64,000 bases of DNA from Escherichia coli (GCF_003334255.1 NZ_QOWU01000009.1); one strand, 5' to 3'; shown: positions 50,108 through 50,533, counted from the first letter of the stretch. Numbers and translations: made by a program. Notes: generated by a model from the letters alone, not told the origin.

Positions 50108-50233
50108 ATGATGAAACGCCTTATCGTTCTTGTTTTGCTTGCCAGCACGCTGCTCACGGGCTGTAACACCGCTCGCGGTTTCGGCGAAGACATCAAACAT
50201 CTCGGCAACTCCATCTCTCGCGCTGCCAGCTAA
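50108..50233 (+). CDS. ecnA: Entericidin A lipoprotein (41 aa)
   Basis: ATG 50108, TAA 50231-50233; [41 protein letters not shown] with lipobox LLTGC; absent from ORF track. Confidence 0.85.
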
Positions 50234-50343
50234 TTTTTCTTCTCTTCCGAAAAATCATCAGATTCCCATCATTTTTGGCGATGTTGTCTATTATTAATTT
50301 GCTATAGGCAAACATAAATAACATTACCTAAAAGGAAGACGTT

Positions 50344-50490
50344 ATGGTGAAGAAGACAATTGCAGCGATCTTTTCTGTTCTGGTGCTTTCAACAGTATTA
50401 ACTGCCTGCAACACCACGCGTGGCGTTGGTGAAGACATTTCTGATGGCGGTAACGCGATTTCTGGCGCAGCAACGAAAGCGCAGCAATAA
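50344..50490 (+). CDS. ecnB: Entericidin B lipoprotein (48 aa)
   Basis: ATG 50344 after AAAAGGAAG Shine-Dalgarno, TAA 50488-50490; [48 protein letters not shown], paralogous to ecnA; absent from ORF track. Confidence 0.85.
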
Positions 50491-50497
50491 GCAATAA

Positions 50498-50533
50498 CGG
50501 TACGACAGCTGTGTCGTGCCGTTTGTTTTTTCT
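50498..50533 (+). terminator. Intrinsic terminator of ecnB
   Basis: Hairpin cggtacgaca-gctg-tgtcgtgccg followed by tttgttttttct. Confidence 0.8.

Follow-up and report, generated by a model that had tools for sequence, protein, structure and literature searches.

Between efp and the sugE (gdx) gene of Escherichia coli lie two very short open reading frames, which raise the question of whether they are genuine genes and, if so, whether their products work as a toxin and its antidote. We examined this in a stretch of 64,000 nucleotides from E. coli (GCF_003334255.1, NZ_QOWU01000009.1), hereafter called the window, from whose first letter positions are counted unless another locus is named. An earlier note, made from the sequence alone, had read the two frames as the entericidin tandem ecnA-ecnB, missed by the ORF track, and as a stationary-phase bacteriolytic lipoprotein with its antidote.

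The two small reading frames are the entericidin genes ecnA and ecnB

Both frames were recovered on the + strand. ecnA occupies 50108-50233 and encodes a 41-aa precursor starting at the ATG at 50108, and ecnB occupies 50344-50490 and encodes a 48-aa precursor starting at the ATG at 50344. The spacer between them (50234-50343, + strand) measures exactly 110 nt, the length claimed for it, and houses the ecnB promoter and 5' leader. Upstream, ecnA is flanked by efp (49490-50056), and downstream, ecnB is flanked by sugE/gdx (50666-50983, + strand), which bears out the proposed location between efp and gdx. The call of ecnA draws on the ORF list, identity to MG1655, NCBIfam, Pfam and the lipobox rule, and that of ecnB on the ORF list, RefSeq, NCBIfam, Pfam and detection by mass spectrometry.

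An 851-nt stretch across the locus is 100% identical to E. coli K-12 MG1655, in which RefSeq places ecnA and ecnB among epmB, efp, sugE, blc and ampC and names them "lipoprotein antitoxin entericidin A" and "lipoprotein toxin entericidin B", respectively. The locus was found in all 5426 of 5426 complete E. coli genomes, with a coverage of at least 80% in 5420 of these. The earlier note had named the lack of any entericidin match as grounds for giving up its identification; both peptides match entericidin families. EcnA scored 114.9 bits against the NCBIfam equivalog NF007319 (cut-off 86) and EcnB 121.9 bits against NF007487 (cut-off 94), and since the cross-matches of the two peptides to each other's model (44.5 and 46.5 bits) stay below the cut-offs, each is assigned to its own model. 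The 20-residue Entericidin domain of Pfam (PF08085) was matched over its full length (model positions 1-20 of 20) by residues 21-40 of EcnA (E 7.6e-06) and residues 24-43 of EcnB (E 5.9e-07), and starts directly past the lipobox cysteine in both. Thus, the 41-aa and 48-aa frames are the known entericidin genes ecnA and ecnB of E. coli K-12, arranged as tandem paralogues. Compared with K-12 entericidin A/B (PF08085; NF007319, NF007487), sequence, position, gene order and flanks are the same and no difference was seen, so that these are the reference alleles; by the sequence-level defining features tested, every one of which is present, the pair is the reference member of the entericidin family.

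These genes have long been described (1998) and are annotated across E. coli RefSeq genomes, and their regulation by RpoS, OmpR and MicA has already been published. As a finding of a genome scan, the locus is therefore of little importance. It is useful as a positive control, for the sequence-only reading recovered two true genes that, with fewer than 50 codons each, escape ORF lists filtered by length. At 41 and 48 aa, both fall below the usual 60-aa threshold for ORF listing, which would explain their absence from the ORF track.

Both genes encode predicted lipoproteins and are under purifying selection

Each peptide begins with an n-region holding two K/R residues, followed by a hydrophobic h-region, and both satisfy a PROSITE-PS51257-like lipobox rule, as the proposal of a signal peptide and lipobox cysteine in each had anticipated. 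In EcnA, the signal peptide spans codons 1-18 and ends in the lipobox LTGC with Cys19 (codon 50162-50164, + strand), leaving a mature peptide of 23 aa; in EcnB it spans codons 1-21 and ends in LTAC with Cys22 (codon 50407-50409, + strand), leaving 27 aa. LPAM_1 matched EcnA weakly (E 0.023). The conserved (R)G(F/V)GEDI core described in the earlier note was recovered in the longer form CNT-x-RG-(F/V)-GEDI, common to EcnA and EcnB, and the pairwise alignment that it had suggested as a check of paralogy gave 55% identity (24/44) with an E value of 4e-14. The helical hydrophobic moments of the mature peptides were 0.59 and 0.41, values matched by none of 1000 shuffles, in agreement with the published prediction of amphipathic helices.

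According to these features, the precursors would carry a Sec/Lol-type lipoprotein signal peptide that is cleaved before Cys19 in EcnA and Cys22 in EcnB, with lipidation of that cysteine. The mature amphipathic peptides of 23 and 27 residues, starting with CNTxRGxGEDI, would then be tethered to an envelope membrane, and membrane perturbation is the putative mechanism of entericidins. Both peptides have Asn at position +2. For EcnB, lipidation at C22 is asserted by UniProt curation, and the intact protein does not elute in top-down mass spectrometry (PMC12529367). Few small E. coli proteins are detected by mass spectrometry as often as EcnB, whose abundance in minimal medium was put at up to about 70,000 copies per cell; EcnA is not mentioned in that small-protein proteomics paper (PMC12529367).

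Could such short frames be chance openings in intergenic DNA rather than genes? Small ORFs are common, and an opposite-strand ORF of 41 aa also spans ecnA (50089-50214). Taken by itself, the lipobox rule is satisfied by 10 of the 467 ATG-started ORF variants of 30-80 aa in the window, three of which are ecnA or ecnB, and because the rule is so poorly specific the lipobox is supporting evidence rather than proof. Against a chance origin stand the equivalog-level family matches, conservation over dozens of genera and even phyla, and the detection of EcnB by mass spectrometry (PMC12529367). In addition, 44 species comparisons of the mature-peptide regions gave a pN/pS of 0.16 (ecnA) and 0.08 (ecnB), which argues for purifying selection on both genes. 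We regard the chance reading, with a likelihood close to nil, as refuted by the family scores together with the signs of purifying selection and the detection of EcnB protein. The antisense frame itself, an ATG-started ORF on the - strand covering nearly the same span as ecnA, had no family match or other support and was treated as a chance frame.

A DNA-pattern scan of a collection holding one genome per species found at least 120 entericidin-like loci, mostly in Enterobacterales. Other taxa among the scan matches listed were Halomonadaceae, Aeromonas, Alpha- and Betaproteobacteria, Verrucomicrobiota and one Phycisphaerales genome.

ecnB carries expression signals of its own

The earlier note had credited ecnB with its own Shine-Dalgarno sequence and a strong intrinsic terminator, and both were confirmed. 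The Shine-Dalgarno sequence AAGGAAG lies at 50332-50338 (+ strand), with 7 nt from its GGA core to the ATG, and is conserved at 0.9 or more in 69 genomes. The terminator (50496-50533, + strand) consists of a GC-rich 12-bp stem with a 4-nt loop at 50496-50523 followed by the T-tract TGTTTTTTCT, with a folding energy of -21.4 kcal/mol.

To locate the promoter, 85 nt upstream of ecnB were aligned across 69 genomes. The ecnB-proximal half of the spacer was conserved, and the best-conserved block, TTGTCTAT(G/T)(C/A)TTAA in the interval 50284-50298, looks like a sigma-S-type extended -10 element. Within it we place the putative sigma-S-type -10 of the ecnB promoter at 50287-50297 (+ strand), reading TCTATTATTAA, of which the conserved block is observed and the exact bases are our assignment. 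This -10 block is the most conserved stretch upstream of ecnB, with at least 0.9 per column (69 sequences, among the matches listed); it reads TCTATGCTTAA in most other genera and is kept even in genomes without ecnA. Transcription of ecnB would accordingly start near 50300-50302 and yield an mRNA of about 230 nt with its 3' end near 50533. A second -10-like element, TGCTATAGG, follows at 50300-50308 (+ strand) in the initially transcribed region and is likely a sigma-38-dependent pause-inducing motif, as its geometry fits a published description (PMC5389655). In that work, the ecnB P fragment (-90 to +40) was a natural sigma-38 template, used poorly by the sigma-70 holoenzyme in vitro; it held a -10-like motif between +1 and +20 matching TGcTATA(A/C)T and showed sigma-38-dependent pauses at +17/+18 that were abolished in a +5G mutant, and an OmpR repressor site overlaps the promoter (PMC5389655). 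A sigma-70 consensus scan of the spacer found no promoter, a result that is uninformative here since ecnB has a sigma-S-type promoter without a good -35.

Post-transcriptional control was examined by pairing the small RNA MicA, whose query sequence was confirmed by Rfam RF00078 (83.9 bits), with the ecnB mRNA. RNAduplex predicted a pairing site at 50345-50375 (+ strand), in which MicA 5' nucleotides 1-28 lie over ecnB codons 1-11. The duplex energy was -24.2 kcal/mol, compared with -12.6 +/- 2.9 kcal/mol for 500 shuffled targets, of which 0.2% do as well. MicA lowers ecnB mRNA in E. coli, as it had earlier been found to do in Salmonella (PMC3551931), and by the predicted site this repression would proceed through pairing over the first codons.

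The suggestion of independent ecnB regulation thus turned out to have been published already, in the form of the sigma-38 promoter with its OmpR site (PMC5389655), the MicA effect (PMC3551931), and the response to a LolCDE inhibitor, which induced ecnB 6.7-13.5-fold and did not induce ecnA (PMC5105897). EcnB was also raised more than 100-fold in a clpP mutant, for which the authors credit RpoS at least partly (PMC12529367). Taken together, ecnB would be transcribed from its own sigma-S (sigma-38) promoter in the spacer, be repressed by OmpR, and have a strong Shine-Dalgarno sequence and a strong terminator, a combination by which EcnB would build up to high levels in stationary-phase or starved cells.

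ecnA is probably expressed by read-through from efp

The signals around ecnA are of another kind. Its start lies 51 nt behind efp and 15 nt downstream of a hairpin just past the efp stop (50060-50093, + strand; -24 kcal/mol, z -2.76), which has no T-run behind it and was not called as a terminator. The homologous post-efp hairpin does have a T-run behind it in several genomes without ecnA. The Shine-Dalgarno sequence of ecnA is weak, an AGG at 50099-50101. Because the hairpin lacks a T-run and AGG is the only ribosome-binding site, we infer that ecnA is expressed weakly and largely by read-through from efp. The terminator scan of 50234-50343 found no terminator-like hairpin past ecnA, so a bicistronic transcript may exist besides that from ecnB's own promoter, and transcripts containing ecnA probably extend across ecnB and end at the terminator that both genes share. 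The two genes would then be expressed differently, ecnA depending largely on efp read-through and ecnB on its own promoter.

ecnA is absent or decayed at loci that retain ecnB

To compare the fate of the two genes, we used 78 efp-linked Enterobacterales loci among the matches listed whose sequence shows the 3' end of efp, a sample rather than a census. Among these, 57 of the 78 hold the intact tandem in the synteny epmB/efp-ecnA-ecnB-sugE/blc. Three of the loci (L027, L072 and L100) were counted as tandem for an intact ecnA with an LNGC lipobox or with C-N-A or C-H-T past the cysteine. ecnB stands without ecnA at 13 of the 78, where the gap between efp and ecnB is 148-225 nt and too short for ecnA; these ecnB-only loci include those of Pseudescherichia vulneris, Superficieibacter electus, Kluyvera sichuanensis, Trabulsiella odontotermitis, Silvania hatchlandensis, Phytobacter massiliensis and two Enterobacter species. 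Relics of ecnA with frameshifts or deletions were found at three (Citrobacter amalonaticus, Intestinirhabdus alba and Salmonella enterica subsp. arizonae), and the remaining five hold a single gene or belong to a class that could not be determined. Hence, among the matches listed, ecnA is absent or decayed at 16 of the 78 loci that keep ecnB, as counted at the efp locus, with losses that are not all phylogenetically independent.

Six further NCBI assemblies of the Salmonella type showed loss of the ecnA start codon, an 11-nt deletion across the Ala-Arg-Gly-Phe codons and further frameshifts, and ecnB and its upstream block are intact in the same six. The Salmonella-type EcnB protein variant is indexed in 1946 blocks of the collection. 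A literature search found no paper describing the decay of ecnA in Salmonella, though an earlier report may exist.

In genomes where ecnA is missing or decayed, mature EcnB is identical to that of E. coli or departs from it at a few residues, and the promoter is kept. Over the matches listed, the mean pairwise identity of the mature peptides was 89% for EcnB versus 74% for EcnA, and that of the signal peptides 80% versus 47%; by these identities EcnB is the more constrained partner. The systematic evidence that ecnA is dispensable is the sole element of this analysis that is mildly new.

One ecnB gene deserves separate mention. In Kluyvera genomosp. 3 YDC799 (L086, 1961-2200), which has no ecnA, ecnB is apparently frameshifted near its 3' end (...AISGQQPRRSNKS...) and extended to 79 aa, which could be a sequencing error or true decay of ecnB.

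The antidote relation of EcnA to EcnB looks non-obligate

The toxin/antitoxin annotation has its literature basis in over-expression, under which EcnB promotes lysis and co-expressed EcnA dampens it. As relayed in PMC7296081 and a Xanthomonas preprint, over-production of EcnB raises lysis and ecnA in cis counteracts this effect (Bishop et al. 1998). The stationary-phase bacteriolytic lipoprotein and antidote of the earlier note therefore agree with the canonical model (Bishop et al. 1998, as relayed there) and with current database annotation; in view of its over-expression basis and of the 16 of 78 loci described above, the claim should not be taken as established physiology.

Taken literally, the annotation would make ecnAB an obligate chromosomal toxin-antitoxin module for addiction or programmed cell death, in which EcnB kills the stationary-phase producer unless EcnA neutralises it. 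The toxin and antitoxin names in RefSeq and NCBIfam fit such a module, as do the lysis experiments relayed in PMC7296081 and the Xanthomonas preprint and the adjacency of two paralogues that are paired at 57 of the 78 efp-linked loci among the matches listed. Yet a toxin gene of this kind should be absent where its antitoxin is absent, and at the efp-linked locus we found 13 ecnB-only loci and three frameshifted relics among the 78 of the matches listed, together with the six Salmonella-type assemblies, in which a near-identical EcnB and its promoter are kept. A true antitoxin should also be essential, yet a viable ecnA mutant is present in the Keio collection (PMC7296081), and about 70,000 copies of EcnB per cell are borne without killing (PMC12529367). 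With regard to co-transcription, ecnB has a sigma-38 promoter of its own (PMC5389655) with a conserved -10 block and is induced without ecnA (PMC5105897), which would speak against a single autoregulated promoter for both genes, but no terminator was found past ecnA. Finally, the "toxin" is better conserved than the "antitoxin". A kept, abundant and conserved toxin with a repeatedly lost antidote is not what an obligate pair predicts, and we consider such a module unlikely.

The antidote relation of EcnA to EcnB therefore looks non-obligate, in light of the loss or decay of ecnA with retention of ecnB, the viable ecnA mutant and the copy number of EcnB. Doubts on the toxin-antitoxin label have already been voiced (PMC7296081), and the wider interest of the locus lies in a pattern of gene loss across Enterobacteriaceae that supports them. 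"Toxin" and "antidote" should be read as "annotated as" such. At the level of sequence comparison, our results indicate that ecnB would be the conserved, functionally primary gene and ecnA a modulator that can be dispensed with, not an obligatory antidote. We are highly confident that this division, together with entericidin identity, lipoprotein processing and separate expression, is the best explanation of the locus as a whole.

A stronger form of this reading may also be put forward, in which EcnB is not a suicide toxin: abundant in the envelope and dependent on sigma-S, this lipoprotein would have a physiological function during stationary phase or envelope stress, and EcnA would be a younger, dispensable paralogue that does no more than modulate it. 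It draws on the loss of ecnA with retention of ecnB and its promoter, the stronger constraint on EcnB, the viable ecnA mutant and the copy number of about 70,000, and we see the chances for and against it as evenly balanced. If it is true, the toxin-antitoxin label that databases have long given to ecnAB would reflect an over-expression artefact.

Another possibility is that entericidins act mainly outward. EcnB would then leave the cell, for instance on outer-membrane vesicles, and serve as a bacteriocin-like or surface-docking lipopeptide whose targets are other bacteria and not the producer. A secreted 3-kDa homologue of EcnB from Enterobacter sp. C6-6 was bacteriolytic to Flavobacterium psychrophilum (Schubiger et al. 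2015, as relayed in PMC7296081), and the high copy number of EcnB and the amphipathic nature of the mature peptides would fit a surface or vesicle role. The solo EcnB-type protein Atu8019 of Agrobacterium tumefaciens, a small entericidin-domain lipoprotein without a partner like the products of the ecnB-only loci of Enterobacteriaceae, bears on both sides: it is surface-exposed, packaged into vesicles and mediates vesicle docking, but has no lytic or pore-forming activity, whereas the E. coli proteins are paired and over-production of EcnB reportedly causes lysis (PMC7296081). As the literature examined gave no evidence of EcnB export in E. coli and the locus encodes no export or immunity function, a mainly outward action seems to us quite improbable, and the reading of ecnB as the primary gene with ecnA as its modulator is preferred.

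Classical toxin-antitoxin modules such as mazEF and the type I hok/sok family likewise pair a small gene annotated as toxin with an adjacent one annotated as antitoxin. Unlike in these, the toxin and antitoxin of ecnAB are paralogues with separate promoters, cells can do without the antitoxin, which is often lost, and the toxin is abundant in healthy cells. The 1998 work by Bishop is also said to have attributed to ecnAB plasmid stabilisation by post-segregational killing.

Flanking genes and distant relatives

The ecnAB loci of Citrobacter, Enterobacter and most other Enterobacteriaceae share with E. coli the efp-ecnA-ecnB-...-sugE/blc synteny, the lipobox, the CNTxRGxGEDI core and the ecnB -10 block. 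In most of them, however, ecnB and sugE are about 900 nt apart, with an opposite-strand gene of 195-199 aa for a GerE-domain (LuxR-type HTH) regulator in between, whereas the gap in E. coli is only about 175 nt and the regulator gene is absent. The E. coli ecnB leader also has a 6-nt insertion relative to other Enterobacteriaceae. The GerE-domain gene, probably ecnR, was located at 9775-10374 in a Citrobacter locus (L012) and at 1678-2265 in the Salmonella-type assemblies (L123-L128).

Upstream of sugE/gdx in the window, a guanidine-II (mini-ykkC) riboswitch aptamer was found at 50602-50648 (+ strand), scoring 50.4 bits against Rfam RF01068 (gathering threshold 32) and forming two hairpins with ACGA and ACGG loops. 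Just 5' of it lies a sigma-70-like promoter at 50556-50583 (TTGAAA, 16 nt, TG-CAAAAT). The RefSeq name of sugE/gdx is still quaternary ammonium efflux transporter. This gene (+ strand, end 50983) and blc (- strand, 50980-51513) are convergent, and their stop codons overlap by 4 nt (50980-50983). Among 5431 places matching the efp-ecnAB-sugE stretch, three are on plasmids, and at least one genome has two places; the plasmid-borne places may be tied to mobilised ampC-blc-sugE regions.

Farther afield, four loci from Verrucomicrobiota and unclassified MAGs (L002, L005, L049 and L052) encode distant entericidin-domain lipoproteins with C-terminal extensions, and several entericidin-domain proteins of Chthoniobacterales share a common tail ending in NPPQWPK. 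An alphaproteobacterial protein of 148 aa (L063, 190-636) has the entericidin core fused to a putative C-terminal peptidoglycan-binding domain. Halomonadaceae possess a conserved tandem pair of entericidin-like lipoproteins of their own, CNTMRGMGEDIE...AIQR followed by CNTMEGAGEDVERGG, which is not linked to efp and was seen at L009, L040, L044, L045, L074, L087, L101, L104, L107, L110 and L112, so that the arrangement as tandem paralogues arose or was retained outside Enterobacterales as well.
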